This document shows positions 30,074 to 59,035 of a stretch of DNA of 64,000 nucleotides, one piece after another. Position 1 is the first letter of the stretch. Each line of letters opens with the position of its first letter. The translations under genes and the position numbers were made by a program. Source of the stretch: Eledone cirrhosa (taxonomy: Eukaryota). The stretch covers positions 1,302,001-1,366,000 of the forward strand of contig OZ024748.1 of assembly GCA_964016885.1 (NCBI GenBank), given 5' to 3'. The notes below the pieces were generated by a model. The model saw nothing but the letters and a program-made list of their open reading frames with translations. It did no database searches and was not told the DNA's origin.

Positions 30074-30105
30074 TATAAATATTATATCCGGATAAGCCGT
30101 CATTC
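30074..30105 (+). promoter_or_regulatory. candidate TATA + Initiator core promoter for ACE exon variant B
   Basis: TATAAAT at 30074-30080; TCATTC (matches Inr TCAKTY) with its A at 30102, 28 nt downstream; ATG 113 nt further on. Confidence 0.4.
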
Positions 30106-30214: not shown

Positions 30215-30406
30215 ATGTTTTCGACACCAAACGTGTTAGCGTTGTCTCTGTTATATTTGGTAGACCTTTCAGGATTAACTTATGCTGTGAATCAGGAAAA
30301 ATGGTTGGAAGAGTACGCTGAGAAATTTTCCAATTCCTACATTTCTTTTATACATGCCTTGTGGAATTTTCAGGTGGACATCACAAACGACAGCCAAGAG
30401 AAAATG
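30215..30406 (+). CDS. ACE: ACE-like (peptidase M2) first coding exon, variant B, 64 aa
   Basis: MFSTPNVLALSLLYLVDLSGLTYAVNQEKWLEEYAEKFSNSYISFIHALWNFQVDITNDSQEKM; AAAAATG start; phase-0 donor ATG|GTAAAC; WL..Y and A.W.F..D.T spacing identical to variant A. Confidence 0.8.
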
Positions 30407-31358
30407 GTAAACTACCTTTTGTTTTTGAGTTAATTTTGGTTTTGTTGGTTTGTTTTCTGTTGTTTTTGTTTTTTGTTTTGTTCGTTTGTTTGTTTGATGG
30501 ATTTAATTGCAGCTCCATCACAAACACCAACATCACCATCACCACCATCACACTCACCAACACCAACACGACCATCACCACCACCACCAACATCACCATC
30601 GCCACCACCAACACAACTCGGATTCTACACACACACTCATACATATATATATATATATATGAGTGTTAAACATTTTCATATATATATATATGTATATATA
30701 TGTATATATGGTGGCTGCCAACTCGTTTTCGAGTACGGCCACTCCTTTATATCCATGTAGGAGAACCCCTACCGATGCGCTGAACAAGTGTGACTTTTTA
30801 GTCCAGCCAGCGACTTGAAAACTCTGGTACAAACACTACACTTGTGACAATTATTGACACATAGTGCTGGGCCCATGGTACCATGTGACGACAAGTGCAG
30901 AGAGATCTCCAGATATAAAGCAATGCCTGTGCCGTGAAGCTTTTATAGTGAGCAAAGGCACTGCACAAAACCAGTCCCACTCTCTTAACCAAGATGATAT
31001 TTACCAAAAAGAAGAACAAGTCAACATCATTGGATACCATCAGGGTTGCAGGTGTTATATCAGAGTTTTCCTTCTCCTAGAATTCTGCCTTGACAAAGGC
31101 TAAGGGGTCATCTCTCCCGGTGATTTTGGATGGCCATTGACTCTTACGAGCTCCTTTGCCCTTTGACAGGTTTTGTTTTTAGTCCTGCAGGATGTCCAAA
31201 GTCACCCTCCTCACCAAGAAACCTTGGTGGGGTTGCCAGTTTAGTCGCCAACGACCCGACCATGAGACAGGTTGTACTGGGATACATGTTACCAGTAGCA
31301 CCAACTGGTGACCTGACATATATGTATATATACATATATATATACACACACACACATT

Positions 31359-31400
<42 letters not shown>

Positions 31401-31437
31401 AATATGTATACACACACATATATATGTATATATATAT

Positions 31438-32045
31438 CAATTTTGAGAATATGTTGGTTGTTTACCGACACCTCAATATGCAGATTGGAGCACTCGACGA
31501 AGTGCGCAGGTTGGTTTGGTTACTCCGGAGTAATGTAAAATAAAATAATTAAGTCAAATATTTAAAATTTGGCTTCGTTTATGAAAGATGTACTGCTATA
31601 TATATTTCAGTGACAGCCATCATTGGCTGTGACCTCTTCAGGCAGTCCGAATTGGTGTGGTAGAGACAGGTTCACATGTTGTTAAAGTGTTTTACTCCGT
31701 CAATACTCCGATATGTCCAGCTCCTAGTTGGGTTGTTATTTCTCTGAGGAACTGGAATCATATGAATTCGAACAAACGAATTTCGGTATCATAGGACACT
31801 CTCTCCTCCCATTGGTCAGTTGTGAGAATATTCCTCAGTCAAAAGACTATAGAAATTTTTTTCTGAGGCAAGACAATCTTTTGTGGTTGTTTTTGTTAAG
31901 TGCAGCTGACCTCCTCCCTTGTGTTTATAGGTGTTAGGGGGTTAGCTGGCAGGTCAGCCTTAGTTCTACTGATGCTGTCTTTAGAAGAATGAGTGTATGT
32001 TGGTTGGCATCAATCCTACCACCCTTTCGCGTGGTGGGGGTGCCA
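31438..32045 (-). mobile_element. Penelope-like/retrozyme-like repeat carrying a hammerhead (31592-31646)
   Basis: same family at 48378-48649 + 49586-49685, 49840-49905, 52125-52592; minus strand ACTGC-CTGAAGA..GAAA-TATATA-TA-GCAGT. Confidence 0.65.
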
Positions 32046-32335
32046 AACAGATGATGAAATAAGATAAAGTAAAATGAAGAAATAAAATATAAATAAAAAA
32101 ATAATAATAATAAAATAAGATAAGATACAAAAAAGGATGAAGAATAACATGGTTAGCTGTACAACCTATATAGGAATTACCGCGAACTCGCTGCCTAACT
32201 ATGGAAACATCTTGTTGAGTCAAACAAAGCCGTACGTTAAAACTATCCACGACGTAGAGTACTCACAACCTCTAACTGGATTACCTATAACGATAACTTG
32301 TTACCCGTTACCCCATATATATATATGTGAGAAGA

Positions 32336-32419
32336 ACCCTCTGACGAAATTTTCCTTCTCAATGGTGTTCCGCGTGGATTATCCATTTATTTTGAGACTT
32401 GAAACCGCGCGATAAGGGT
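32336..32419 (+). ncRNA. degenerate hammerhead-like motif
   Basis: ACCCT-CTGACGA-[irregular stem II]-GAAA-CCGCGCGA-TA-AGGGT; near-palindromic stem III. Confidence 0.45.
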
Positions 32420-32487
32420 AAATATAGTAAGTACAGTAAACCTTTTAAATTTTATTTTAAAACTTTTTGTCTATTTGCTAAACCTTG

Positions 32488-32530
<43 letters not shown>

Positions 32531-33010
32531 AGAGGGTGTAACGTGGAGTTACTATAGGTTCACCCGGGTAAGCACTCGATGTTTACGTTCACTTCTGTGT
32601 CGAGATGTAGAGATAGACAGAGTGTAGTATAATATAATAAAACAAGGACGAGTAGTTACATTTTCTCATTACCATTAGTCGGGCTAGATCGATACAGATG
32701 GAACATTGAGCTGATCAGTGGCAAAACGCGCGTCAAGAATCACTTCACTTGTAGTTCTAAACAATTTAATTTAATTTTATAATTTGGTTTTGTAGATCTA
32801 GTAAGTTCTTTGTTAACTTCGGTGGGAAGATTTTTAAAGATTCCTGGTTAACTTCCTCGTATTCGTCGGTGGCGATTGTCAAACTGAGATCAGGTTGTGT
32901 TGTGATGTGTGACTCTATATATAAGAGATTTGGATATGTTTGGGGGTTAAGGTGGTGTTAATGAGTGTGGGAGTGAAGGAGTGTTGATGAAGATATATAT
33001 ATATATAGAT

Positions 33011-34189
33011 ATGTTTCTTTATTAGCCACAGGGGCACAAGAGAAGGGGACAAATACAAAGGGGGAAGTTTACATACAATAAAAACGTGTAAAATATTATC
33101 ACAAATGTAATTTAAAAATTAGTCGATTTTCCCCAATAGGGGGAGACATTTCATATGGGTAACACATACCCCCGAAAAAAATGTGCAACCCTCATCTTCA
33201 GGAGTTCGAAGAGTTTGTACTCCTTTCCTCTCCTCCTCTTTTTCCTCAACCTACAGGCTGATATAGAGAGAAGGCCCATTCACTCGGGCCATTCTCGCCA
33301 CTTTCACCCACCTTTCATAAAACTTGCTTGGGTACAGCACCTCTCTCTCCATCCTGATTCTTCTTCCAAAGTGGTATTTGAAAAAAAGAATCAGTTGTTG
33401 GCCGGAGAGAAAGGTGTCTGGCCTCAGCCCTTTCAACCTTGTCCACCATACAACCTCTTTCGCCATAGCTATCACACAAAGGAAAACCGCCTCTCCTTCG
33501 TTTTTGAAGGAGGGTGGCGGTTTAATCATGACAATGGACTCAGTGGTCAACCGGATTGATCCCACCCGCGACAATAGTCGTTCTACATACCCCCACAGGT
33601 CGGTGACGCCCGGGCAGTGTATGAATGCGTGCGCGACAGTTTCTTCGTCTCGCACGCACCTCGGATAGATCTTTTTTGCAGGGTCCCTGCCGGGGCGCCC
33701 ATGTCTGTAGAGCTTGTCTCGAACTGGTAGAGCTCCTCGGTAGCACTGCCAGGCCAGGGACTTTGGGAAGTTTCCCATCGGTTCCGGGCGGAAGGTCCTA
33801 CCGAACAGACTGGCCAGTTCGTCTTCCTCTACGCCCAGAGTTTCACCGAGCACGTCGTCGCACTTGCTGCGGATCAACCCTCTATAGAATGACGAAGTGG
33901 GGGTCTCCACTGATCGCCGGGTCCGCCTGCCAGAGGGCTGTGAGCGCCTGAGCACATTCGATGTGCCAGTTGCCCATTTTCCTCGGTCTTTGCTTGACCC
34001 AGGACTGCAGCTCGGTCAGCGAGACGAGTCGTGGGAAGGCTCGCCTCACGAATGGGGCCCACACCGGTTGTCCGGTGAGGAATACGTAGAGGTGCCGCAG
34101 CCTGAGCGCGTATTTGCGCATCGTCAGCCAGGGCAGCCCCAGCCCTCCGTTGGAAGGGCGCTGGCAGCAGATGGATCTTCTCACCAAAG

Positions 34190-34190
<1 letters not shown>
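33011..34190 (-). mobile_element. 5'-truncated Tx1 LINE, related subfamily
   Basis: ORFs 33882-34187 and 33251-33955 are homologous to 1800-2915 (VRRSICCQ, SLAWQCYRGALPVRDKLYRHG, AKEVVWWTRLKG); 3' AATAAA; 5' end abuts (GATA)n. Confidence 0.92.
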
Positions 34191-34233
<43 letters not shown>

Positions 34234-34619
34234 TGTATGTGTGTGTGTGTGCGTGTGTGTGTGTGTGTCTGTGTGTGATTTAATAATTCCCTGATTACAA
34301 CATTATACTCTCGGACCCTTATAATATGTGGGGTTGGAATAAGTGGGGGTCGGGGGAGGAAATCGGTAATCTTTCTAAGTTGTCTCCGTTGATTTTTTTA
34401 AAATCCAGAATTAGTCGTTTAGTTTACATATTGAGACACCCCCCCCCCCCCCCCCCCAACCATCCTATTTATTTTATAACGTATAGGATTTCTAGTAATG
34501 TACTTTATTTTTTTGTCATGTATAATGTCTTTTTAATGTCTAAAGAAAATTAATTGTCACAGGAATGCTACCACTTAAAATAAAATTTCGTCGGAGATAG
34601 ATTAGCAAAATTTAATAAG

Positions 34620-34980
34620 CCACCCATCCACACCACATCCCTTCTACATCCTGACTGAGCCCTGTCTCGACAACTCTCACTTTGAAGCCAATGTGAGGGA
34701 GAGAAACTTTACATCCGCGTGGATCATTTCGGTAGAAGAAAAGGGTGGGAGTGCCTTTGTCCTCTTTTACATCAGAGGAAAATGACATTCTCCAATGGCT
34801 ACTATAAATCAATTTCTGTGTACTACAAAACCAATGATTTGACAGTAGTTGGGCTCTATAGGCCAACCCAAACGCCCCTTACTGTGCTTCAAAGAATTCC
34901 TCAACATCATTAAGAGTTTTATACAGCAGCGCCCACTCTGGTAATATACTAAAGATGAATGGCTTTAACTTCCCCTGTAA
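34620..34980 (+). pseudogene. degraded APE endonuclease fragment of a CR1/L2-like LINE
   Basis: across frames: ILTEPCL, KGGSAFV, VVGLYRP, GFNFP. Confidence 0.5.
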
Positions 34981-35722
34981 TAATTTGTCTACAAACTGTT
35001 CGAAACCAGTTATTTCCAACTCAACGCCCTATAAAGTAGAAGCAGTAGAATCACGTTTCTACATTAACCACTTCAGTGGCGTAGACGAGATAACTCGTCC
35101 TAACATATTTCAATTCTTTTCCAAAAATTCATAACTTCAAAATTATGAAATCGTTTCCAAAAGTTCATAACTTCAAAGCTAGATGGGGTTACTAGTTTAT
35201 TGATGTGACGTTTGTCAATCATTCAGATATGTGTTGTTAATAAATGTTTGTTTAGAAAAATAGTCATTTTACTAAAACAAACAAAAAAACCGGAACAGCA
35301 ACTGTAGCTGTTTAAAAAATACGCGGCAGTCAACAGGTTAAGGATGTGTTTATCTTGTTCCAACTTGTTGCTCGCACAAACAAGATGTCACAAAATCTTT
35401 TGGGGATTTAGTGTTTAGTAACACTATAAGTCGTGTTATGGGATCATCTGCGATTCTAGATGGCAGAATGTCGAGATGCTACCTCAAAACATTTGCGTCC
35501 ACCACATGTAAATCTCTTAGGAATTTTGGCAGCTTGGGATCCTTGAGACCCAGGGTATTGCATTACCTGGTATTTATATGTATTTCTCTCTCTCTCTCCT
35601 TTTCTTTCTCTCTCTCCCTCTCTTTCTCTCTCTCTCTCTCCCTCCCTCCCTCCTCTCTCTCCATCCTCTCTCTCTCCCTTCTCTCTCCTTTTCTTTCTCT
35701 CTCTCTCTCCCTCCTCTTTCTC

Positions 35723-35760
<38 letters not shown>

Positions 35761-35769
35761 TCTTTCTTA

Positions 35770-35803
<34 letters not shown>

Positions 35804-36658
35804 TTATATGTGTATGGGTTGTTTGGCTTATGATCGTAAGGTCGTGAGTTCAACTGAAGACTGCGCATTGTACCCTTGAGCAAGACACTTTATTTCAGAT
35901 TGCTTTAGTCCACACCGCTATAATAGAAAGGGCCAATGCTTGTACGGCTGTTTAACCCTATGATCTAAGTCAAGGGTAGAGACGTCTGTGAAACGCTGAG
36001 CCACTTACACGTTAGTTTCACGAGCATGTTGTTCTGTTTGCCATAATGACTGGAACAGTCATCGTCAAAACCGACTGAGGTCCAACAGATAAGTAGAGAA
36101 GGGGCGGGAGGTAAGTAAAGGGAGTGTAGTGAAATGAAGGTAGGGGAGTGGATTGGGGAGACGATGTACAGCAATTTCAAATTGATGTCAATAAAATGTC
36201 AAATGAACAGGGGTCAAACATTGTCAAATGTCAACAGCTCTCTCTCTCTCTCTCTTACTCCCTCTCTCTCTCTTACTCTTTCTCTTACTCTCTCTCTCTC
36301 TCTCTTACTCTCTCTCTCTCTCACCACACCCATACTCCCCCTCTCTCTCTCTCTCTCTCGCCTCACCCTTAGTCTCCCCCTCTCCCCCCCCATAAACACT
36401 CACACACAGGTAAACACATACACAGCTACACACACACACACACACACACAGGTACACACACACACACACGCAGGTACACACATACAGGTACACACACTCA
36501 CACACATACACATACAGGTACACACACACACCCACAAACAGCTACACACACACACTCTTTCCCCTACTAGTGACACTTGTTTGTCAAATCTACATGTTGG
36601 TGACAAGTGTACATAACTTAGCTTATTATATATACATTATTATTATTATATATACAAT

Positions 36659-36775
36659 GGCGGTGGATGGCAGTATCGGTAGAGGGTCGGACGCCATACT
36701 TTCCAGCATATTTACGTCCCTTTACGATCTGAGTTCAAATCCCGCCGAGGTTGACTTTGCCTTTCATCCTTACGG
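36659..36775 (+). mobile_element. SINE family 1, 3'-truncated
   Basis: A/B boxes and start of core. Confidence 0.82.
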
Positions 36776-37298
36776 ACACACACATGTATATATAATAAGC
36801 TAAGTTTATTTTTATAGAATTATATATATACACGTACATACATATATGTATACATTATATATGTACACGTACATACATATATGTATACAGACGTACAGTA
36901 GTATGTATATATATATACATACATGCACACATATATATATGATATATATGTACGTATGGATTCACCGAACATTTATTATAATGCTCGGTGTGTTTGTAAA
37001 CAAACATCCCGTATTAAGCCGTAGTGTCTAGCAACCATCGTTGCTCGTTTGTTCAACACTGGGCAACGATGGTTGCTAGACACTACGGCTTAATACGGGA
37101 TGTTTGTTTACAAACACACCAAGCATTATAATAAATGTTCGGTGAATCCATACGTACATATATATATGTGTGCATGTATGTATATATATATACATACTAC
37201 TGTACGTCTGTATACATATATGTATGTACGTGTACATACTTATATTTAAGTAACAGCCGTACTAAGAGTGGGAAATGAAATTTCGTTTCATTTTTTCC

Positions 37299-37375
<77 letters not shown>

Positions 37376-37729
37376 ATAAACCAGATAAGATAATTATTTC
37401 ATTTACCAGTGCAAACTTGACTGTCACCACAGAATCTGAACCTGAAGATTGCGAAAGCATGGAAGTACTTGTTCAATTAACACTTAACATTTAATATTCT
37501 ACCATACTATTTCATTCTAATACCATTATAAATGTTAAAGGATTGTAAATAAAACGAGTAAATCAGACAAAGTTGGAATTCCTTTTATTAATATAATCTT
37601 CTATACACAATCATACACACCCGTGTATATTTATCTATATATATATATACGTATATATATATATATGTCCCAAGGCTCTGATACCATCAACACTATAAAC
37701 ACACAGCTGGCATATCTAAGAACTGACTA

Positions 37730-37785
37730 ACTGCCTGATGAGGTCATAGCCACTCAATGGCTATCATCGAAATATATATAGCAGT
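37730..37785 (+). ncRNA. minimal type I hammerhead ribozyme motif
   Basis: ACTGC-CTGATGA-GGTCATAGCC(ACTCAAT)GGCTATCATC-GAAA-TATATA-TA-GCAGT; complete core, stems I and II pair. Confidence 0.7.
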
Positions 37786-37977
37786 AAATAAAGGATTATG
37801 AGTTCATGCAATTGACTTATGTTTCGTCACTATTATAACTCCGGAACTTATATCTTCGTTGAGTGCTCCCTATCCGCATACTGAAGAACTGTGTTTTACC
37901 AACACTTACTTTCTTGCTTACCCCATGCTCCACACCTTGTTGAGCGCTTCATACAGTAGCGGACCGCATAAAAATGA

Positions 37978-38009
<32 letters not shown>

Positions 38010-38324
38010 ATACACACTCATACACACCCGTGTATATTTATCTATATATATATATACGTATATATATATACGTATATATATATATATATGTCCCAAGGCT
38101 CTGATACCATCAACACTATAAACACACAGATGGCATATATATATGCATATATATATATATGTTTGTGTGTGTTTGTATTTCAAATGTGTTATATACAACC
38201 CCACCCAGCTATGTTCAACAGACCTAAACTAAACAAGACACAGACTAAACACGAGACACATCTGTTGTCATATTAAACTTGACATCACACACTTTATATG
38301 GATTAGTATATACTTGGAGAACTC

Positions 38325-38968
38325 ATACTACAGCACACTACACTACACTATACTATACTACATCACACTACAACACACTACACTACACCACACTACACTA
38401 CAGCACACTACACTACACTATACTATACTACATCACACTACAACACACTACATTACAACACACTACACTACACCACGCTATACTACACCACACTACACTA
38501 TACTATACTACACTACACTATACTACAGCACACTACACCACACCACACTACAGCACACTACACTATACTACACCACACTACACTACGGCACACTACCCTA
38601 TACTACAGCACACTACACTACACTACACCACACTCCAGCACACTACCCTATACTACAGCACACTACACTACACTACAGCACACTACACTACACTACACCA
38701 CACTCCAGCACACTACCCTATACTACAGCACACTACACTACACTACACCACACTCCAGCACACTACCCTATACTACAGCACACTACACTACACTACACCA
38801 CACTCCAGCACACTACCCTATACTACAGCACACTACACTACACTACACCACATTACACTATACTACACCACACTATACTACAGCACACTACACTATAATA
38901 CTGCACACTACACCACACCACACTACAGCACACTACACCACAGTACACTACACCACACTACACTATAC
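38325..38968. repeat. (CACTA)-type pentanucleotide satellite
   Basis: direct reading. Confidence 0.95.
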
Positions 38969-40200
38969 AACAGCTTTGTGTTATTGGAATCTGACGCAGT
39001 TTATATCTCATCAGCCTTCTCACTCCACCACTGATCCTTCGCCTAACACGTGATTTCACATCCTTGAGTTCCTTATGCAACATATTCTTCTCCTGTGGTT
39101 TTGCCGTCAAGTAGCGTGACAGAGCACGCCTCTTATCAGCCAACAAGTCTTCTATATGTTCATCATTCTCATTAAACCAGTCTCGATGTTTTCTCTGCAC
39201 CAACCCCAGAACACGCCTGCCTACATCATAAACCGACTTTTTAAGGGTCGGCCAATCCTCACCAAGATCTGCAACCTGCATCTCTTCTCTCAATGTCCTC
39301 TTCACATTTTTATCCCTAAGACGAGCAGCATTCAATCTTCTGGGCAGGGTAACACCAGGAGCCCGGATTTTACGTTTAGTGATTAGTTTCACTTTTGCGC
39401 GTACCAGGCGGTGGTCCGTCCAGCACTCAGCTCCACAAAGAGCACGAACACACTGCACATCCTGTCTGTCACGCATCCTGACTAGGACATAGTCCAAAAG
39501 ATGCCATTCCTTAGATGCAGGATGCATCCATGTGGTCTTGAATTTGTTCTTTTGTTGGAACATGGTGTTGGTAACACACAGATCCAGCTCCTCAGACATC
39601 TGCAGCAGGAACATACCATTGTTGTTACACTTTCCCACCCCATGCCTTCCAATTACATTCCATGTGTTAAACTCCCTACCCACTCTAGCATTAAAGTCAC
39701 CAAGCACGATGACTTTGTCTGCCTGAGGGATATTTCTTAAAACACCTTTCAAGGCATGGTAAAAGGACACCTTTTCCTCATCGACAGAACTCATAGTGGG
39801 AGCATACACACTCACCAGGGTAGCATATCTTCCCTTGTCCAGCGGAACTCTCATGGACATAAGACGCTCACTAATCCCTACTGGAAATTCTTCTAATTCA
39901 TCCACAAGAACACTCTTAACAGCAAATGCTACCCTAGCCTCTCTTCTGGTTCCTTCATCTCTTCCTTTCCAGAAGAATGTATATTCTCCACAAAATTCTG
40001 AAAGATGACCATCTCCAGCTAACCTCAGATAAAGCTACGATATCAAGATCGTAACGTCGAAGCTCCTTTGCAACAAGAGCGGTCCTTCGTTCAGGACGCT
40101 CTAAGGAATCCCTGTCAAGCAGCGTCCGTACGTTCCAGCAGCCAAGACTAAATGCCTTGTTTGGCTCTATTACAGTGGCACGATGACGAGCGGGCCCAGG
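38965..40200 (-). mobile_element. RTE (BovB-like) LINE 5' part: endonuclease domain only
   Basis: GCWNVRTLLD..RPERRTALVAKEL..IVALSE, SVYAPTM, LGDFNARVG, TTWMHP..WHLLDYVLVR, CWTDHRLV; frameshift near 40020; no RT present. Confidence 0.92.
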
Positions 40201-40336
40201 CTGTGATAACCTGGGGCCCCTGCCCTTATTGCCAATTATCTCTTTTGTTCCAGAACCCTTATTACCAATTATCTCTTTTATATTGTTTTGGAACATCATT
40301 GAATTGGGGGGAAAAAAAAGTAATAATAATAGTAAC

Positions 40337-40373
<37 letters not shown>

Positions 40374-40408
40374 GTTCTGGAACAAAAGAGATAATAATAA
40401 TAATACTT

Positions 40409-43400
40409 GTTCTGGAACAAAAGAGATAATTGGCAATAAGGATCAGATCAAGCTAGTAGCACAAAGTCAGCGAAGGGAAAATGAAGCATGTGTCAGTGAA
40501 AACGAGGTAAACTGTAACACTTCGAATCCCAGAGTTGGGGCGGAATCACTGGCAACAGAACAAATTAAAGAAAGGAGCGAAAAAGTGGAGGGAGTGCATG
40601 CTCAGGATGAAACTCCAAATGAAAATAATGAGATCGTAAATGATAAAGAAATGAATGAGAATGAACTTGCCAACTTGAAGGATGAAATTATGATCGAATG
40701 GATGAAAATGAAAGAATCTGACATGGGGGAACGAGACACCCTCCCTAAGATCCAGAACTCCAAACAGAACCAAAAGATAATACACAAGACTAACATAATT
40801 CTCAAAAACATTATCATCACAAACAAAATAAACATTACTGACTTAAATCATCTCTATTATGCATCGGCTAAAGTCACCACTCACTTATGTGGAGTGAAGA
40901 TGAAAAAACAAAGGAATTCCCACAAGAAATCTACTTGGCAAGATAACATCAATCGCCAAATAAACCTTCTCCGATCTGACATAGAAATTTTAACAAACTA
41001 TAAAGTAGGTGAACATGTTAAACAAACTAAACTTAGAAAATTGAAAAAAAAGTACAGTATAAGATCAACATGTGACATAGACATGCTGATAGAAACAATC
41101 AAGCAAAAAGTGTCGGCCAAAGCTGCTCGTATAAGGCGCTTTGAAAAACGATCTAGATTCTATAAGGACAATAATATGTTCAAAAACAACCAAAGAAACT
41201 TCTACAGAAAAATTGGTAAGTCAACAATAACTGCTAAATCAATACCACCCAAGGAGGAAGTGCAAGAATTCTGGGAAAAGATCTGGGCCGAAGAAAAAGT
41301 TCATAACATACATGCCCCATGGATAGACAGACAAATGAAAGAAACAGCTCACCTTGAAGAACAAACATGGGAAAATATAACAGTTGAACAGCTGCGCTTG
41401 GCTCTAAGAAAAACCAGCAAATGGAAATCCCCAGGAAAAGACAAAATACAAAACTTTTGGATAAATGCCTTCACAGAGTCTCATGAGCTGTTAGCCCAAC
41501 TTTACAATGAAATAGTTAAGGAGCCAGAAAAGATACCATCATGGCTAGTTAACGGCATTACATTCCTGCTACCGAAGAATGATGAGACAAACAATCCCAA
41601 AAATTACAGACCGATAACCTGCTTGACCACAATGTATAAAATTTTAACATCAGTCCTAACTGAATACACATATGACCACCTGATAACAAATGACCTATTT
41701 CCCATTGAGCAGAAAGGGTGTAAACGAGGCTCATATGGCTGTAAGGATCAGCTTCTGGTTAACAAAATGATACTGGAAGATTGTCATAATAGACACAAAA
41801 ATCTATCGATTGCTTGGATAGATTATAAAAAAGCATTTGATAGTTTGCCACACAGTTGGATTGAAAAATGTTTAGAGATTTTCAAAATATCCCCCGTTGT
41901 CAGGAGGTTTTTGTCATTCAATATGAGGACATGGAGAACGACACTCCTTTTGAATAGTGAAACAAAATCACTGGAAGCTGGAGAAGTTAACATTAATTGT
42001 GGAATTTTTCAGGGTGACTCTTTATCACCGCTTTTATTCTGCATCGCACTTATACCATTAAGTAAAATGCTCAATGAAACAAAACATGGATATAGAGTCT
42101 ATGACAAAACCATTAATCACCTGTTCTACATGGATGACCTGAAACTATTCGCAAAAAATGATGAACAATTGCAAGGGCTATTATCCACTGTGAAGCAGTT
42201 CAGTGATGACATTAAAATGGAGTTTGGACTGGATAAATGCGCCAGAGGAAAGCTGCTGAAGAGTTCAGACATTAATCTTGATCGGGGGAACGTGATAAGA
42301 GAGCTTGATCAAGAACAAACTTACAAATATCTAGGTGTTTGTGAAGGAGACGGAATCAAGCACTCGACAATGAGGGAAAGGATAAGGAAGGAATGTTACC
42401 GCAGAGTCAGAGCAATCTTAAGAACGGAATTGAATGCAAGGAATAGGATCGATGCCATAAACACGCTTGCCATACCAGTAGTAACCTATAGTTACAATGT
42501 CATCAACTGGTCAAGCACAGAGATCCGTAGGCTCGATACAAAAATCCGAAAATTCTTAACCATGCACAGAATGCATCACCCTAAGGCAGACATAGATAGA
42601 ATATATCTCCCTAGGAAAGAAGGAGGACGTGGGTTAATCCAGTTAGACATTGCGTTGAAAACTGCTATCTAAGGGAATCACATGATTGGATGATCAAACT
42701 CGTTTTGAAACACGAAAGCACCAAAAGATCATATTCCATTACAAAAGATGCACAAAGATACAGTAATGGACTACAAATTTCAGAAGTCCCATTTACTGCT
42801 GAAATGGAAAACACAGAAAAAGCAAAGCAGGTAAAAGTAACTGCAAAGAAAGAACTGCTACAGAAACTGGCTAAGAAATGGCAAGAAAAGCCTCTGTATG
42901 GAAAATACCCAGAGCGAGCTAACAATCCTGATGTTGACAAAACTTTAACCCATCAGTGGTTGGCATCCTCTGGACTGAAATCGGAGACTGAAGGACTGAT
43001 TATATCCGCACAAGATCAGTGTCTGCCAACAAAAAATTACCATGCCAACATAATAAAAAATGGGTGCAGCCCATTATGCCGTGTATGCAAAAAACAACCA
43101 GAGACCATTGACCATATAATTTCAATGTGCAGTCCTATAGCTCCAACCGAATACCTAAACAGGCATGACAGAGCTGCACAATACATACATTGGATAATGT
43201 GTAAGCATTTTGACCTGCCCCATCAAAAGAATTGGTGGGAGCATCAACCACCTCCCATACTTGAAAAAGATCACATCTCAATCTTGTGGAACTTTAGCAT
43301 CCAAACAGACCGAAAAATAGATGCAAATAGACCTGATATAATATTGAAGGACTTTCAAAGAAGGGTATGCCTGCTAATTGATATGTCTGTTCCAATAGAC

Positions 43401-43806
43401 AAGAATGTATCTATAAAAACATTTGAAAAATTGAGCAAGTATAAGGACCTGGAGATAGAAATTGGAAAAATGTGGAAATTGAGAACTAAAACAATACCAG
43501 TGGTTGTAGGCGCTCTGGGAATGATACCTAAGGGGTCTAACGACTACTTATCGCAAATCCCAGGAAACCCGCGTATAGGAGAAATACAAAAGATAGTACT
43601 AATGGGAACTGCCCATATACTAAGGAAGATCCTGTCAATATAAGTACATCACAAGTCTAAACACTAAGGATGCATGTGTGAATATGTGTGTTCTTTCTTG
43701 AACATGGCGGACCTTGTTGTCTCTTGAGGTCACTGGTTGTGACTTGGTGATAACTCGTATAAACATAAAGCAAGATAAATGCAAATAATAATAATAATAA
43801 TAATAA
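40409..43806 (+). mobile_element. R4/Dong-like RLE non-LTR retrotransposon, RT + Zn knuckle + RLE, one frameshift near 42670
   Basis: WKSPGKD, NYRPITCL, WIDYKKAFDS, GIFQGDSLSPLLF, HLFYMDDLKLF; CRVC..ETIDHIISMC, RHD, RPDII, IDMSVP, EKLSKYKDL; (AAT)n on both sides; frame stays open upstream of 40585. Confidence 0.93.
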
Positions 43807-44360
43807 ATCTGGAACGCACTTCGGAAAACAAAATTAACAACAAACGAGGAAGAATATATTGAGACAGATGGCACTAAGGAATACTGGTGGAACCTGAAAA
43901 TAAAAACTGCCACCAAATTAAAGCGCAACCGGCCTGATATTGTTGTTTGGGACCACACATTGAAAACGTGTTCTGTTGTGGAGATCAGTGCCCACTTGTG
44001 GTAAACGTTGTCAGAAAAATACAGAAGGAGGAGGACATCTACGGACCATTGATGAGGAGTTTGCAAATCCAGTATCCAAGATACACCTTTAGCTTCATAC
44101 CCATCATTATTGGAGCTACGGGTTATTTACCATCCCGCTTGGACCAAAGTATAACTGAACTTGGATTTGCGGACAAAGAGCGCAGCTCCCTAATTCATAG
44201 TCTACAAATGGCTGCGATAGCTGGCACCTTCAAAATTTGCAAAACATTCTTACGATTCAAGGGATGACAATTTCTTTTCTTTTACAGCCTTGTCACCAGG
44301 AAGGTGGCCGGTCAAAAAAATATACTCGAAATTAAGAGAGAGATAACATACATACATACA
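43807..44360 (+). mobile_element. RLE 3' fragment, copy 3 (same family as 3080-3700), frameshifted
   Basis: near-identical to 3147-3700; different downstream flank. Confidence 0.9.
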
Positions 44361-44929
44361 CACATACATACACATATACATACACATATACATACACATA
44401 TACACATATAGACCCGCAAACACTGACACGCACACTCAATAGTTTTTTCACTCTTTCTCACACATACACACGCCCCCCGCCCCCCTCTATCTCTCTCTTT
44501 CTTTTTCTCACAAACAATAACTTTCTTTCGCGGACTCTCCCTCTCTCTCACTCTTTCCCTCCCTCTCGCTCTCTCTTTCTCTCCCTCTCACAAACACACA
44601 CACACACAATAACTTTCTTTCGCGCACTCTCCACCGCCTCTCTCTTCTCCTCTCTCTCTCTCTCTCTGCCGCTTTTCTCTTCCTCTCTCTCTCTCTCTTT
44701 CTTTCCCCCTCTTTCGCTCTCTCATAGACACGCTCATATTCTCAATAACTATCTCCGTCCTTACCTCACACGCTAACTCTCTCTCTCCCTCCCTCACACA
44801 CACACTAACTCTCTCCCTCCCTCATATACTAACTCTCTCTCTCTCTCTCCCTCCCACACACACACTAACTCTCTCTCTCTCTCCCTCCCACACACGATCT
44901 CTCCTGGACAATCATCATTAATCTAAAGT

Positions 44930-45121
44930 ATGATCTCCCCAACGAAAGTCTTATGTGTGAGTCTGCTGTGTGTAGTAAACGTTTCCCTACTAACGTCTGC
45001 TGGAGAGGTGGAGAAATGGTTGGAGAAATTCGCTGAGGAGTTTACAGAAGCCTGTACAGAGTTTAGTGTCGCCTCCTGGGTTTACACCACCGACATGACA
45101 GACGATCATCAAAAGAAAATG
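44930..45121 (+). CDS. ACE: ACE-like (peptidase M2) first coding exon, variant C, 64 aa
   Basis: MISPTKVLCVSLLCVVNVSLLTSAGEVEKWLEKFAEEFTEACTEFSVASWVYTTDMTDDHQKKM; ASWVYTTDMT compares with ACE2 ASWNYNTNIT; phase-0 donor ATG|GTAAAA; 29/64 identical to variant B without gaps. Confidence 0.83.
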
Positions 45122-45234
45122 GTAAAAAAACACGTTTTTGTAACTTTTTGTTGTTGTTGGTGTTGTTATTGTTGTTTTTGTTTTGTTTTTTCGTTAGTTT
45201 ATTGTTTTTGTTTTGTTTTTATTATCATATTATC

Positions 45235-46020
45235 TCCACCGCTACTATCGCCACCACCACCACTATCTTCACCGTCTCTATCTCCACCACCACCACCACC
45301 ACCACCACCACTATCACCACCACCACCACTACCACTATCTCCAACACCACTATCACTATCTCCACACCACCACCACCCCTATCACTATCTCCACCACCAC
45401 CACCATCCCTATCACTATCTCCACCACCACCACCACCCCTATCACCACCACCACCACCACCACTACCCCTATCACTATCCCCACAACACCACCCCCACCA
45501 TCACCCCTATCACTATCTCCACAACACCACCACCACCACCACCCCTATCACTATCTCCACAACACCCCCCACCACCACCACCCCTATCACTATCTCCACA
45601 ACACCACCACCACCACCACCCCTATCACTATCTCCACAACACCCCCCACCACCACCACCCCTATCACTATCTCCACAACACCACCACCCCTATCACTATC
45701 ACTATCTCCACAACACCACCACCACCACCCCTATCACTATCTCCACACCACCACCACCACCACCCCTATCACTATCTCCACACCACCACCACCACCACCC
45801 CTATCACTATCTCCACAACACCACCACCACCACCCCTATCACTATCTCCACACCACCACCACCACCACCCCTATCACTATCTCCACAACACCCCCCACCA
45901 CCACCACCCCTATCACTATCTCCACAACACCCCCCACCACCACCACCCCTATCACTATCTCCACAACACCACCACCACCACCCCTATCACTATCTCCACA
46001 CCACCACCACCACCACCATT
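45235..46020. repeat. CAC-rich minisatellite (CCCTATCACTATCTCCAC(A)ACACCACCACC)n
   Basis: direct reading. Confidence 0.93.
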
Positions 46021-46823
46021 ATATCACTGCCATCATTCGAGGCGGGAGTAGTTGAAAGTCAAAACATGTAATTTTCTGCAAGTAAGCGAAACAATTTACA
46101 AAATATGGCCTATGTAGTAACAAACACTGGCTTAGTTCTTTTTCTTTCTATTTTGGAAGGGTGGGGTGTCTTTGTTCAGGATTGGTTTGTTTGTTGTTGT
46201 TTTTAGGGGGAGGGTTTCTCTTTGCTTTGCTTTGTTTTGTTGTTTTGTTTTGTTTTATTTGGTGGGGGTTTGTTTTGTTTGGGTGAGTTCCATTCCCAGA
46301 CCTGGCGATGCGTTATGTCCTTGAGCAAGACACTTTATTTCACGTTGCTCCTTCTACCTTGAGTTGCGGCCGATAGATAGTATTAGCAACCGGAAAGACC
46401 AACGGAAACATTGTTTCCTCGGTCCGATTTGACGAAAGTCGATCGATCCTTTTGTTTGGGTTTGGTTTGTTTGTCTATTTGTTTTAGGGTGGGCGTGGGG
46501 TTCTCTTTTATTGTGGTCAGCGCAAAAAGTGTCTAAAACTAGGTTCAGTTCGGTTTGCCAAGTTGAAATTATTTTATTTGGGGAAAAGGGGGAGCATAAC
46601 TGAGGAAATAAATAGCCAGTATATAAATACCCCAGAAACGGCGATCCCCACCTTTCACAGTTGAGCGACTTACAGCAAGCAGGCCATCTACTCTGAGGAG
46701 TTTTCAATTGAAATCCCACTGCACCTATCTAGGTACCTCTAGAGTTCGATTCAGCTCTCTCTCTCCCACTCTGTCCTTGAACACTCCTTCCACTCTCTTT
46801 ACCAATCGCAAGAGGCAATGTAG

Positions 46824-46867
<44 letters not shown>

Positions 46868-47144
46868 TATTTCGTTTCTGAATTTGTTTAGCAAGATTCT
46901 TTATCTGAAAACGTGTGTTGAAATCGATATTGTTATACTTTGGGAGGGTCATGTTGCCAATAAGAAGCACACGCACCAGTCGTTTCACTTCAATTTATTA
47001 TAAATTTTATAAATTTTATAAATATAAATTTTATAAATATAAATTTTATAAATTTCCGGTTGGTTGGTTGGTTCCACAACTGGATGGTGTTTATATATTG
47101 TCAAAGTTCTTTCGTCACACATTCTGTGACCTCTTCAGTGACTT

Positions 47145-47390
47145 TGGCCGGTGCTTATCCCGGTTTCATGGCGTGAAGCGACTGAGAGCACAAGACTTCC
47201 CCCTGGACAGGACACCAGTCCATCGCAGGGTTAAACCTCCAGCTATTGCTGTTACTCATTTTTAGCTGAGTATACTGGAACAACGTGAAATGAAGGGTCT
47301 TGCTCAAGAACACAACACGCAGCCCAGGAATCGAACCCACGACATTATGATCGTAAGTCCAACACTCTTACCACTAGGCCACGTGCCTCC
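47145..47390 (-). mobile_element. SINE family 2
   Basis: minus strand GGAGGCACGTGGCCTAGTGGTAAG A-box and GGTTCGATTCC B-box. Confidence 0.87.
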
Positions 47391-47449
47391 GTGTGTGTGT
47401 GTGTGTGTGTATACACATATATATATATATATATATATATGAATGTATA

Positions 47450-47725
<276 letters not shown>

Positions 47726-47892
47726 TATATATATATATATATATGTATGTATATATATATATATGTGTGTGTGTGTGTACCAGGAGGAGAACTGACAAGG
47801 CAAAGTCCTTAATTGTCATCAGATGTGGGGTATCTATTTACAATTCTGTCCATTGTGAGTTCAAATCCTACATCCCTGTATCCGGTCATAAT

Positions 47893-48093
47893 AATGGTTT
47901 CTTATATAAACACAAGGCCAGCAGTTTTGAGTGAGGGGAAAGTCGATTAAATCGACCCAGTGCGTGACTGGTATTTTATTTTATCGACCCCGTAAGGATG
48001 AAAGGCAAAGTTAACCTCGGCGGGATTTGAACTCAGATCATAAAGGGCAGTAACTCTATGCTACAAAGCCTCGCGTCCGACCCTCTACCGATA
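47893..48093 (-). mobile_element. SINE family 1
   Basis: core and B-box on the reverse strand. Confidence 0.85.
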
Positions 48094-48347
48094 CATAATA
48101 AACGGTAACATAAACGGACAGGAGTTCCCTATTTACTACGACACCCATGTAAGCTCCTATGGAATGTCACCTCATACAATTCTAGTTAAACCTGTACAGG
48201 TGTGAACCATAACAACATCGCACGGCATTGTTTTATCTAGAAAACCAGGTATGCATCAAATAGTTATAAAGCAACTATTTTTGTGGGAAAATGTTTATTC
48301 TATGATTCTATTACGAGTTTCAGCCGACAGATTGAGGCCATGCTTGT

Positions 48348-48383
<36 letters not shown>

Positions 48384-48536
48384 ATTAAGTCAAATATTTA
48401 AAATTTGGCTTCGTTTATGAAAGATTTCCAGTTCCTCAGAGAAATAACAACCCAACCAGGAGCTGGACATATCGGAGTATTGACGGAGTAAAACACTTTA
48501 ACAACATGTGTACCTGTCTCTACCACACCAATTCGG

Positions 48537-48591
48537 ACTGCCTGAAGAGGTCACAGCCAATGATGGCTGTCACAGAAATATATATAGCAGT
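48537..48591 (+). ncRNA. minimal hammerhead motif (stem II closing pair mismatched)
   Basis: ACTGC-CTGAAGA-GGTCACAGCC..GGCTGTCACA-GAAA-TATATA-TA-GCAGT. Confidence 0.6.
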
Positions 48592-48649
48592 ACATCTTTC
48601 ATAATCGAAGCCAAATTTTAAATATTTGACTTAATTATTTTATTTTACA

Positions 48650-49585
48650 CTAGCAGTAAAGCCCGGCGTTGCTCGGGGTCGCTCAGTAGCTGTGTTAAAG
48701 TTACAATGTTAAGTTTCTTTCTTGGCTTAAAAACTGTAGTGTCTACTGTGCAGACTTGCATGTGGTGTTTTTGATTAATATTCCCTCAACCAACAATATG
48801 CCTTATGAAGTTAAGAAAACATAACGATAACCCGAATGTTATAACAAAAGAGGATGCTGGGGATAGAAACTGCACTGGTTATTTATTAACAAAGATCGAA
48901 AATGTAAACACTGCAACGCAGAGAAAAACATTAGCGTAACCAAATTATCAGTTATGTCTGTCTGCACGCCTATATCACCTCTCTGCACGACTGTCTGTCT
49001 GCACGCCTATATCACCTCTCTGCACGACTGTCTGTCTGCACGCCTATATCACCTCTCTGCACGACTATATCACCTCTCTGCACGACTATCTGTCTGCACG
49101 CGTATATCACCTCTCTGCACGACTGTCTGTCTGCACGACTGTCTGTCTGCACGCCTAACGACGAAATATTTGCTTGTTTTACGTAGTCTTTAAATAGACT
49201 TGTTTTCAAGTAAAAATATTGTTTTAAAATGCTTTTAAATGGAAATGAAGCAAAACGGAAGCTTAGTGTTCGAACTGATGAATTTTGCAGGTCAATATTT
49301 TGCTGGCTCGACAACTGTTAAAGCCAGCGTAATTTTTTACGTAAGACGCTCAATGTAAACAGAACAAAGGGAAATAACTGATAACTTACGCTCAAAAATC
49401 GATACATTATATTCGATTTCGTCACATAGGGTGGGTCAATTTGAAATTTTTTTTTTTCCGATATCTTCGCTAGGGCTCAATGTACAAGTATAGCAATTTC
49501 GGTGCAATTCCGTGAGAGATTCTAAGAGGAGATGTGTGCCAACAATCGATAGACAGACAGACAACCACAGTTTTATATATATAGA
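48650..49585 (-). mobile_element. non-autonomous Helitron nested in the hammerhead repeat
   Basis: 5' TC, 3' CTAG, subterminal hairpin; removal restores TTTTACA|TTACTCCGG as in uninterrupted copies (no TSD, AT target); internal tandem repeat 48955-49155. Confidence 0.88.
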
Positions 49586-49683
49586 TTACTCCGGAGTAAC
49601 CAAACCAACCTGCGCACTTCGTCGAGTGCTCCAATCTGCATACTGAGGTGTCGGTAAACAACCAACATATTCTCAAAATTATT

Positions 49684-49716
<33 letters not shown>

Positions 49717-49808
49717 ATGTGTGTGCGTGAGTATATGTGTGTCTCTGCGTGTATATATATATATATATATATACACGCACAGACACACATATACTCACGC
49801 ACACACAT

Positions 49809-49839
<31 letters not shown>

Positions 49840-50169
49840 AATAATTTTGAGAATATGTTGGTTGTTTACCGACACCTCAGTATGCAGATTGGAGCACTCG
49901 ACGAATATATATATACACGCACAGACACACATATACTCACACACACACACACACAGAGACACACACATATACTCATACACACACACATATATATATATAA
50001 GCAAGTATTGCACCAAGAAAAATAAAACGTTGGCGTGAAGAGATTAGGAATTGATTTGCTTTAACATATGTTTCTGTGTTCATTCTAAATGTCTACATAT
50101 CCTGACTACAATATATATTGTTCAATCATATGCAGAACTTAATTATCAATTACACTTCATCAGAAAAAG

Positions 50170-50245
<76 letters not shown>

Positions 50246-50399
50246 TGAGAAACATGCGCACACACCCAAATTCTCTCACCTTACCAAAGATAATAGTGAA
50301 GTACTACTCTGTAATCACATTTATATATATATATATGTGTGTGTCTGTAAATATATATTATGTATATAGATATTATGTATATATTTATAGATATACATA

Positions 50400-50441
<42 letters not shown>

Positions 50442-50503
50442 GATAAATTTGACGAAAAGCTGAAATCATAGCCCTTTCACAATGATTGAAACTAAACTTA
50501 AAT

Positions 50504-51450
50504 GAATATTTGAAGGAGAGTTTGGGTGGTGTTTCTAGCCTCTCAAATGACCACCAAATACCACATCTCTCGTCTTAGGTAAATATGATTTGAAGGGGAG
50601 TTTGGCTGGTGTTTCTAGCCTCTCAAATGACCACCAAATACCACATCTCTCGCCTTAGGTAAATATGATTTGAAGGGGAGTTTAGATGGTGTTTCTAGCC
50701 TCTTAAATAACCACCAAATACCACATCTCTCGCCTTAGGTAAATATGATTTGAAGGGGAGTTTGGCTGGTGTTTCTAGCCTCTCAAATGACCACCAAATA
50801 CCACATCTCTCGCCTTAGGTAAATATGATTTGAAGGGGAGTTTGGCTGGTGTTTCTAGCCTCTCAAATGACCACCAAATACCACATCTCTCGCCTTAGGT
50901 AAATATGATTTGAAGGGGAGTTTGGCTGGTGTTTCTAGCCTCTCAAATGACCACCAAATACCACATCTCTCGCCTTAGGTAAATATGATTTGAAGAGGAG
51001 TTTGGCTGGTGTTTCTAGCCTCTCAAATGACCACCAAATACCACATCTCTCGCCTTAGGTAAATATGATTTGAAGGGGAGTTTGGCTGGTGTTTCTAGCC
51101 TCTCAAATGACCACCAAATACCACATCTCTCGCCTTAGGTAAATATGATTTGAAGGGGAGTTTGGCTGGTGTTTCTAGCCTCTCAAATGACCACCAAATA
51201 CCACATCTCTCGCCTTAGGTAAATATGATTTGAAGGGGAGTTTGGCTGGTGTTTCTAGCCTCTCAAATGACCACCAAATACCACATATCTCGTCTTAGGT
51301 AAATATGATTTGAAGGGGAGTTTGGCTGGTGTTTCTAGCCTCTCAAATGACCACCAAATACCACATCTCTCGCCTTAGGTAAATATGATTTGAAGGGGAG
51401 TTTGGCTGGTGTTTCTAGCCTCTCAAATGACCACCAAATACCACATCTCT
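50504..51450. repeat. 80-bp tandem repeat (~12 units)
   Basis: AAATATGATTTGAAGGGGAGTTTGGCTGGTGTTTCTAGCC... recurring at 50581, 50661, 50741, 50821. Confidence 0.97.
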
Positions 51451-51650
51451 CCTTGCTGTCATTAAAATGTTGTTTATGTATCTTGGATTTGTTTTCAAAT
51501 GTCACAAGGGAAAAACATTGAAATGTGTACGGATGTGTAAATATGAAATAATGAAATCATTGTGTATAAACACACACACACACTCACACACACACACTCA
51601 CACACACACACCACGCACGCACACACACACACACACACCACGCACGCACT

Positions 51651-51736
<86 letters not shown>

Positions 51737-52029
51737 CACCTACCCATGTACCCCTCACACAACTATATATATGGAAAAGGACTCACCATAGATAGAGAAA
51801 GGGAGAAGGTAAAACCACACACGCCATCATCACCATCGCATTCTTTCAAATAAAATACATAACTACTTTTCAAAATGTTAAATAATAGTATTTAATGGTG
51901 AAACTATTTAGTTTTGTTTTAAAATGGATTCTCTCCCTTTGCTTTTGATTTGTGCTTGTGTTAGCTTATTAAATATGATTGTTTGCTTTACAATGAAACA
52001 TGCAATTTTGACGACCTATCTAACGATTA

Positions 52030-52119
<90 letters not shown>

Positions 52120-52124
52120 TTTAG

Positions 52125-52592
52125 TATATGTTGGTTGTTTACCGACACCTCAATATGCAGATTGGAGCACTCGACGAAGTGCGCAGGTTGGTTTGGTTAC
52201 TCCGGAGTAATGTAAAATAAAATAATTAAGTCAAATATTTAAAATTTGGCTTCGTTTATTAAAGGTGTACTGCTATATATATTTCGGTGACAGCCTTCAT
52301 TGGCTGTGACCTCTTCAGGCAGTCCGAATTGGTGTGGTAGAGACAGCTACACATGTTGTTAAAGTGTTTTACTCCGTCAATACTCCGATATGTCCAGCTC
52401 CTGGTTGGGTTGTTATTTCTCTGAGGAACTGGGATTCCAGTTCCTCAACATGTGTAGCTGTCTCTACCACACCAATTCGGACTGCCTGAAGAGGTCACAG
52501 CCAACGATGGCTGTCACCGAAATATATATAGCAGTACACCTTTAATAAACGAAGCCAAATTTTAAATATTAGACTTAATTATTTTATTTTAT
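52125..52592. mobile_element. fold-back copy of the hammerhead repeat with two inverted hammerheads (52269-52323 minus, 52481-52535 plus)
   Basis: both motifs have the full core and a G-C closing pair before GAAA; ~52445-52590 is the reverse complement of ~52215-52358. Confidence 0.72.
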
Positions 52593-52601
52593 ATCTCTCT
52601 T

Positions 52602-52679
<78 letters not shown>

Positions 52680-53070
52680 CATACATACATAATAAACAAC
52701 ACAATATAATTATTTCATTACCGAAATTCAATAAAAGTAAGGATTACTATGACCATTATTTATTTATACAACGCTACGGGCGTTTCAATGCGGCTAGAGT
52801 ATCCTGTCTATTTGAGGAGGAGAAAACTGGATATTATCAGTAAGTTATTTAGTCCCCTATGGGTACTCTACTCAAACAGTATCTCTTCAGGGAATATATA
52901 TATAATAAAAAATAACAATAAATTGATTAATATCATAAGACAAATTATCAAGAATAATATAAGATTCAAAGCAAGGTGCATTAAAAAAACATGGAATTAT
53001 ATTTTTATAAGTGTAAAGCATAAGCTTGGATATGTTTTTAAGACATGCAAAAATAGAGATTGATCATTGC

Positions 53071-53101
<31 letters not shown>

Positions 53102-53958
53102 ACTCCACAAGCATGTTAAAATATGTAAAATGTGTTAATAGGTTATAACAAGGATTGTTAAAGAGGTTTTCTTTTTTAGGGTATATAGCAGTGCGTTCCG
53201 TTATTTACCATAGAAAGATTTCACACACATACTCATTACTTGTTCCAGCAGATGTCCTCTTTGTCTCTCTGAGAAATATAACATTCTAATACAATCATTT
53301 GCAGTTTTGAACAAATGTCGGATTTGTTGTATTATCACAAATACTACCAAAGCTATACATTTTTGAATGTCTGAATGTCCAAATACTGACTAGTTTCTTT
53401 TTGACATTATAGATTTATTTTCCTTTAAAAGTAGTCATGGAATAAAACACAAAACATTCAAATGTTCGTGGAGTATAAAACTCTATTAACAGTAGCGGAC
53501 TTCTGTTGCTTCACTGCGTTCTAAAGTATTAAAGATGTAAATGGAACATGTGTTTCCTTTGTCATGTGAATAGTAGGACCCAACGGAGAGAGGTTCACAC
53601 ACACACATATATATACACACAAAACACACATACACACACAAATATACACACACACTACTACGCCTTAATTATTCTATTTACAAGTGACATGTTTTCGCAC
53701 ATGAATTGTAAAAACAAAACATAAGATCAAATACACATATATATATATATAAATATACATACACATACATATATATATATGTGTCTGTATGTGTGTATGT
53801 ACGTCTGTATGTGTATACATATGTATATACATACTCTTTTACCTGTTCCAGCTATCCGGCTAAGACCATAGTGGCGCATATGTGTGTGTTTGTGTATGTG
53901 TTCGTATGAGTATATATCTGTATATATATATGCCTGTGTGGTTTGTGTGTGTACGTAT

Positions 53959-54038
<80 letters not shown>

Positions 54039-54267
54039 ATATATATATATATTCTCAGCATATATCATCATCATCATCATCAACATGTTTAACGTCCATC
54101 TTCCACGCTAGCATGGGTTAGACGGGAGTTGTCCCATTTTGAGGCAAGGTTGGTCGGGTGACCGTGTCACGCTCATATAGGACTATCTGGCAGGTTTTCT
54201 ACGGCTGGGTGCCCTTCCTAACACCAACCACATTTACAGTCTGGACTGGGAACTTTTTACCATGTCA

Positions 54268-54364
<97 letters not shown>

Positions 54365-54640
54365 ATATTAACAAATGGAAACTATATTTATAAAACCATA
54401 TTTATTTCATTATACATATTTCAAAGACACCAAAGCAAATTATGGTGCGCTTTCATCAGATAAAATATAATATAGATCAGTTTTATAAACAAATATTGAC
54501 ATACCCTTAAAGAATGCGACCATGTCGGTTGGAAGCTCCCGGATATATATATATATATTTATATTTATATATATATATATATATAAATGTAAGTATGTAT
54601 GTATACGTACATACATATATGTATACAGACGTACAGTAGC

Positions 54641-54689
<49 letters not shown>

Positions 54690-54690
<1 letters not shown>

Positions 54691-55055
54691 CGAAGGAAAT
54701 GTGGTAAGGAACCAGGTGGACCATAACGCACCAAAGTACTCAATACTTGATGTAGTAGAGTGGGTAATAGGAACCAGTAAGACCCCGACAGCTGAGCTCA
54801 AGCCGTTTCGACGGCTAATTCTGGACTAAATGAAAATTTATCCTGGTATTTAAATAGCCGATCTTCTCAAGGGGTAATTCCATATATGGTCAAAGTGATT
54901 GTCAAAAATCAGTACTGATTTTTGACAATCACTTTGACCATATATGGAATTACCCCTTGAGAAGATCGGCTATTTAAATACCAGGATAAATTTTCATTTA
55001 GTCCAGAATTAGCCGTCGAAACGGCTTGAGCTCAGCTGTCGGGGTCTTACTGGTT

Positions 55056-55060
<5 letters not shown>
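54690..55060. mobile_element. repeat family X with a 294-bp spacerless palindrome (54767-55060)
   Basis: centre CAGT|ACTG at 54913/54914; family also at 56780-56980, 62018-62190, 62565-62605. Confidence 0.85.

Positions 55061-55121
<61 letters not shown>

Positions 55122-55811: not shown

Positions 55812-55854
<43 letters not shown>

Positions 55855-55863
<9 letters not shown>

Positions 55864-56720: not shown

Positions 56721-56723
<3 letters not shown>
55855..56723. repeat. ~336-bp direct repeats 533 bp apart, embedded in (AT)n
   Basis: 55855-56190 is nearly identical to 56388-56723. Confidence 0.9.

Positions 56724-56780
<57 letters not shown>

Positions 56781-59034: not shown

Positions 59035-59035
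<1 letters not shown>
58400..59035 (-). mobile_element. RTE-clade LINE 3' end with 3' UTR and (GAT)n tail
   Basis: [28 protein letters not shown]; UTR-only copies at 54063-54270, 58195-58310 and 60988-61245. Confidence 0.85.

Follow-up and report, generated by a model that had tools for sequence, protein, structure and literature searches.

The stretch of DNA analysed here, called the window, comprises 64,000 nucleotides of an Eledone cirrhosa contig (G000:C8:1302001-1366000, from a searched genome of 3.0 Gb). It holds three intact exons, A, B and C, each of which runs from an ATG to a phase-0 GT donor and encodes a hydrophobic leader followed by ACE lid helix 1. All three lie on the forward strand: exon A at 10044..10229 (62 codons, donor at 10230), exon B at 30215..30406 (64 codons, donor at 30407) and exon C at 44930..45121 (64 codons, donor at 45122). 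The intron behind exon C fills 45122..64000 and continues on the same strand to a shared exon 2, which starts 531 bases past the window end (G000:C8:1366531-1366695) and has a phase-0 acceptor, lid helix 2 and four sequons. Exons 3-13, which include HEMGH and GFHEAVG, follow on the forward strand up to about C8:1395300. A profile built from 60 ACE domains and run over all six frames of C8:1152001-1416000 (264 kb without N gaps) picked up only the three lid-1 exons plus a single series of 12 others, in order, stretching from 1366531 to about 1395300; the same search found no ACE-like or decayed ACE exon between A, B and C. Exon 2 is single copy in the genome search, where PF01401 gave two ACE bodies in all, on C8 and on C4, and genome searches with A and with B returned no further copies.

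Judged by its sequence, the gene on C8 is a single peptidase M2 (ACE) body, having both a PF01401 match and an HEXXH motif with the downstream glutamate. Nine of its exons score above the PF01401 cut-off and span profile positions 128-581, while the matches of exon C, at positions 4-44, and of exon 2, at 46-92, stay under that cut-off. The zinc motif, HHEMGH, is in the exon at C8:1383464, and the downstream glutamate, within GFHEAVGD, is in the exon at C8:1386935. The best identities to the zinc-motif exon reach 83-85%, gastropod ACEs included, among the 120 of 796 matches listed. Two other protein searches carry little weight: one with the three-exon alignment gave 418 candidates, none of which scored, and one with a single body exon gave 6, none of which matched. 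An ESM Atlas search with exon B gave no usable match.

Some other features of the two ACE genes can be mentioned here. Exon 3 (G000:C8:1376587-1376674) lacks Cys at the places of the KVC...C loop pair of human and mollusc ACE domains, and the first conserved disulfide of ACE thus appears to have been lost from the C8 gene. The last exon (G000:C8:1395037-1395300) ends in a hydrophobic stretch with the stop codon directly after it, which suggests either a membrane anchor without a tail or a GPI signal. The second ACE gene (G000:C4:349968850) has a single lid-1 exon within the 130 kb searched upstream; since the open frame of this exon contains no in-frame ATG, its leader is probably encoded on a separate exon. 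Three tandem M2 domains (about 1800 aa) are found in many bivalve and gastropod ACEs, and both ACE genes here appear to be single-domain.

The evidence for splicing comes from a contig of run X4, whose run type is not on record and which was taken as RNA because the contig is spliced. The contig (2085 nt, depth 192) covers exon 2 exactly, and its loose ends correspond to 30 bases on either side: those just ahead of the final G of exon C and those that open exon 3. The contig therefore links the end of C with exon 2, and exon 2 with exon 3, and shows that C is spliced into the ACE gene. An exon-2 junction is documented for C only; run X4 lists no junction for A or B, which does not show that they are absent. 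The contig has 349 letters ahead of exon 2, about 158 of them beyond the coding part of C, ahead of the ATG in the transcript. A non-coding exon may thus precede exon C, which would make C an internal cassette. We found no strong splice acceptor near any of the three ATGs. Upstream of exon B, a TATA-like box and an initiator-like TCATTC (30074..30105, forward strand) make a possible, though weak, core promoter: this pattern has 10 matches in the window, two of them with TATAAA on the forward strand, and among the three exons its spacing is found before B only. Being homologous exons with a start codon and a same-phase donor, placed 5' of one constant region, A and B are likely alternative starts of the gene, and each of the three exons would then have a separate promoter.

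It could be argued that only C is used today, and that A and B are relics, either orphan first exons or the remains of paralogues with deleted bodies, which lost their function recently. C is indeed nearest to the body and the only exon shown to be spliced, and the introns from A and from B to exon 2 would measure about 54 kb and about 34 kb, crossing the donors of other exons on the way. But A and B have kept the ATG, the open frame, the hydrophobic leader and the GT despite near-saturated synonymous divergence, they retain the W/L/A/W/T residues conserved in the family, and the profile search shows no decayed ACE exons between the lid-1 exons. The rates of change point the same way. For B and C, pS is 0.62 against a pN of 0.34 (p = 0.0008); the corresponding values are 0.73 and 0.47 for A and B (p = 0.019), and 0.87 and 0.55 for A and C (p = 0.007). 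In substitution-only simulations on B, the ATG, the open frame and the GT were all kept in 0.3% of the runs at 0.65 substitutions per site, and in 6% at 0.2. Since neutral retention is this rare, B has probably been constrained for most of its history, and the same logic holds for A. This evidence for constraint leaves room for a recent loss, and for selection on single sites. On balance, we regard the relic explanation as unlikely.

The account we favour, and hold to be somewhat probable as a whole, is that three homologous, intact first exons stand on one ACE body, that C is spliced to it with A and B as likely alternative starts, and that the divergence at residues 39-47 is ordinary variability. 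Its established elements are the anatomy, the C-to-exon-2 junction, a pN below pS, and the variability of the family. Old tandem duplications of the first coding exon would have given the three alternative starts; the synonymous sites of B and C, which are near saturation, suggest that these duplications are old. A, B and C have probably been retained mainly for their own promoters and leaders, that is, for regulation and leader choice. Transcription from any one start would let its phase-0 donor be spliced in frame to exon 2, and the cassettes further downstream would be skipped because there are no good acceptors near their ATGs. Meanwhile the residues would have drifted where the ACE family tolerates change. 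Behind both B and C (30407-30460 and 45122-45170), the intron opens with a T/G-rich stretch and goes on into ACC-type repeats, with 71% identity over 247 bases that take in part of the exon; this flank is consistent with a duplication of the exon plus its surroundings, and exon A does not have it. In a tree of 36 residues and 49 rows, which is too short to date A, B groups with C at a support of 82, and A, B and C group with two D-bearing mollusc domains at 76. Two other origins were considered and rejected. The exons are not collapsed whole-gene duplicates: copies as old as B and C would have stayed separate, there is but one exon 2, and the region is free of N gaps. Nor are they the remnants of a three-domain ACE, as each has its own ATG and hydrophobic leader.

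The first-pass annotation of this sequence had drawn attention to residues 39-47 of B and C (30329-30355 and 45044-45070, both forward), where SNSYISFIH in B stands against TEACTEFSV in C and INMTNENVE is found in A. The reading itself is correct, with 8 of the 9 positions different between B and C, and A is likewise identical to either of the others at only 1 of 9. The annotation had gone on to describe the divergence as concentrated in this part, and here the numbers do not bear it out. B and C are identical at 29/64 positions over the exon, at 12/26 in the leader, 8/12 in residues 27-38, 1/9 in residues 39-47 and 8/17 in residues 48-64. A conserved leader, which had also been proposed, is not seen in these counts, since the leader is about as similar as the whole exon; only residues 27-38 are clearly better conserved. 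Nor is the clustering beyond chance (p = 0.52 by shuffling, or 0.29 for the mature part): a 9-residue window with at most one identity turns up in 52% of 100,000 shuffles of the 64-position match string, in 29% of the shuffles for residues 27-64, and in 37% when nucleotides are shuffled at the codon level.

The same stretch is variable throughout the family. Our mollusc sample consisted of 45 ACE domains from 18 named non-cephalopod proteins, out of the 120 of 796 matches listed; it is biased to multi-domain proteins, and no cephalopod name is among the listed matches. In these 45 domains the mean column identity is 0.34 for residues 29-38, 0.15 for 39-47 and 0.42 for 48-64, and 39-47 is the least conserved of 28 windows. 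At most one identity in 39-47 is found in 580 of the 990 pairs of mollusc domains, in 16/37 of the pairs within one protein, and in 190/354 of the pairs matched to B and C for flanking identity. The family-weighted expectation at the distance of B and C is 2.3 identities, and the probability of at most one is 0.29. Taken together with the shuffling result, this low conservation means that the apparent hotspot is the normal profile of the family, and, as a reading of aligned sequences, the divergence at 39-47 is in line with how much this part of the ACE lid helix ordinarily varies. Positive selection is not indicated either, by a dN/dS above 1 or by divergence above the family background: between B and C this stretch has a pN of 0.57, which exceeds that of the remaining exon but is still below the pS of 0.82, a difference that is not significant and comes from 9 codons, which have low power and cannot exclude selection on single sites.

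What did hold up is the structural premise of the annotation. By mapping positions through PDB alignments and the numbering of published papers, whereby residue n of B or C equals ACE2 n-2, cACE n+17 and nACE n-10, the variable helix is identified as lid helix 1, with residues at the non-prime exosite. Residues 42, 45 and 49 align with cACE Trp59, Tyr62 and Asn66, which, in the available part of one report, make contact with ciprofloxacin in an exosite that lies some 16.7 A away from the zinc (PMC12531861). Exon A has T/N/D at these positions, B has Y/F/L and C has C/F/S. Residue 42 is one of the differences between B and C inside 39-47, residue 45 is the single identity there, and residue 49 falls outside. 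One may thus ask whether A, B and C are live, isoform-specific lids that were selected for substrate or inhibitor selectivity at this exosite, much as the N- and C-domains of somatic ACE are specialised. A departs from the other exons at all three exosite positions, B and C differ from each other at two of them, and the exons are under constraint; in addition, the replacement of Trp59 by Leu32 in nACE is argued in the same partly available source to be decisive, helping to prevent ligand binding at the exosite (PMC12531861). The proposal that exon choice tunes selectivity is therefore partly upheld: the exosite mapping speaks for it, but the divergence pattern cannot serve as evidence, given the family background and the lack of any sign of positive selection. 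Selected lids seem to us unlikely. The mapping of 42, 45 and 49 onto the non-prime exosite in human ACE makes a modest effect on long substrates plausible, and if A and B are used, exon choice could, on sequence grounds, modulate long substrates or distal inhibitors. Under the favoured account of alternative starts, any such functional difference between the isoforms, including a shift in long-peptide handling, may be a side effect, reaching long ligands only and at most distally.

A binding partner on the outer face of the helix was proposed as well, by analogy with ACE2, in which the equivalent helix (residues 21-53) is a main contact of coronavirus spikes according to the accessible text of PMC7642307. 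In this scenario the helix would diversify under binding by a pathogen or toxin, and the hydrophobic end of the last exon, which may leave the protein surface-anchored, would suit it. B and C differ at seven of the ten positions equivalent to the spike contacts named in the accessible text of PMC7642307, and at 9/17 of those elsewhere in the helix, so that the contact positions are no more divergent than their surroundings (p = 0.45). There is also no excess of dN/dS, and half of the contact positions lie in the part best conserved between B and C. We know of no ligand for any invertebrate ACE lid. The spike analogy finds no support in these comparisons, and selection by a pathogen or toxin is very improbable.

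The glycosylation sites gave a mixed result. All three exons carry D at the equivalent of ACE2 Asn53, as had been noticed and as the alignment confirms: 10200-10202 in A, D55 at 30377-30379 in B and D55 at 45092-45094 in C, all forward. This position, nACE Asn45, cACE Asn72 and ACE2 Asn53, is a single glycan site conserved in all three human domains and needed for the folding of the N-domain, as stated in the available part of PMC7642307; the C8 gene is thus an ACE transcribed without a site reported to be necessary in the human N-domain. A D here is not the norm in our mollusc sample, an outcome in favour of the annotation, as N occupies the position in 43 of the 45 non-cephalopod domains and D in 2. 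Among 202 other domain rows there are 131 N, 61 D, 1 G and 9 gaps, and many of those with D belong to related teleost C-domains and to beetle domains. The lid-1 exon of the C4 gene has D at the sequon position too. Since D is common to all three exons, the C4 ACE and 61/202 other domains, it cannot separate the isoforms, and the suggestion that exon choice tunes glycosylation fails for the D substitution. The sequons, as potential sites, are real differences between the exons: A has N38-M-T (10155-10163, forward), B has N58-D-S (30386-30394, forward), and C has none in the predicted mature part, its one sequon, N17-V-S, being within the predicted leader. Among the mollusc domains, 1/45 has a sequon at 58. 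The four further sequons of the shared exon 2, one of which aligns by eye with cACE Asn109, also speak against tuning by exon choice. The extra Cys of C was confirmed as Cys42 (45053-45055); Cys is found at position 42 in 7/235 other domains. A disulfide partner for it in exon 2 is ruled out, as exon 2 has no Cys.

The architecture itself has a published precedent. In Anopheles gambiae, ESTs support two alternative first exons, AnoACE3A and AnoACE3B, both of which encode a leader and lid helix 1 (available part of PMC1325048). As in the C8 gene, homologous alternative first exons share the downstream exons of a single-domain ACE; the mosquito exons, however, lie within about 3 kb, reach into lid helix 2 and both keep the N-I-T sequon (PMC1325048), whereas the C8 gene has three exons over 35 kb, which end at the equivalent of ACE2 residue 62 and all carry D, and only one of which is shown to be spliced. 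Given the distance between the lineages, the two exon sets most likely arose independently. The lid-exon architecture is thus already published, and the three-exon mollusc gene is a further case. N-terminal swaps in general account for 40 of 236 human cases of tandem duplicated exon substitution in the available part of PMC9741552. The word 'exon' is absent from the accessible portion of PMC3235092, a paper on oyster ACE, and a search of the literature open without subscription, at the level of listings and abstract openings, found no cephalopod or mollusc ACE with alternative first exons.

Comparisons can be made further afield. The UGT1A and protocadherin clusters likewise place homologous alternative 5' exons on a constant body. 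In those clusters a whole substrate-binding or adhesive domain is swapped, whereas in the C8 gene only about 38 mature residues of a ~600-residue enzyme would be exchanged. The human ACE N- and C-domains and ACE2 (PF01401) align without gaps to lid helix 1, and the C8 body has their HEXXH and downstream E. Mammalian ACE uses alternative promoters, but these choose whole domains and not lid exons.

That all three exons are live, tissue-specific starts, giving one ACE three lids with different exosite residues, is a doubtful prospect. If it were true, a single-domain enzyme would acquire a range of substrates for which other molluscs rely on two or three domains in tandem, and, together with AnoACE3, lid swapping in ACE would have evolved repeatedly. 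The residue pattern alone matters little, being family background. The exon set is nevertheless a natural experiment of three lids on an identical catalytic core, which could be used to measure the share of lid helix 1 in long-peptide selectivity, a role that appears only as speculation in the available parts of the structural papers (PMC12531861, PMC7642307).

The window also contains other sequences, and the repeat content looks octopod-like. Of its 75 long frames, 13 were scanned; the clear matches are pieces of retroelements, and the remaining scanned frames are low-complexity or repeat-derived, with scattered matches or none. These non-LTR remains (RVT_1, endonuclease and zf-RVT) lie at 1785-2915 and 40375-43643 on the forward strand and at 33251-34015 and 38958-40034 on the reverse strand, and are thus placed before and between the lid-1 exons.
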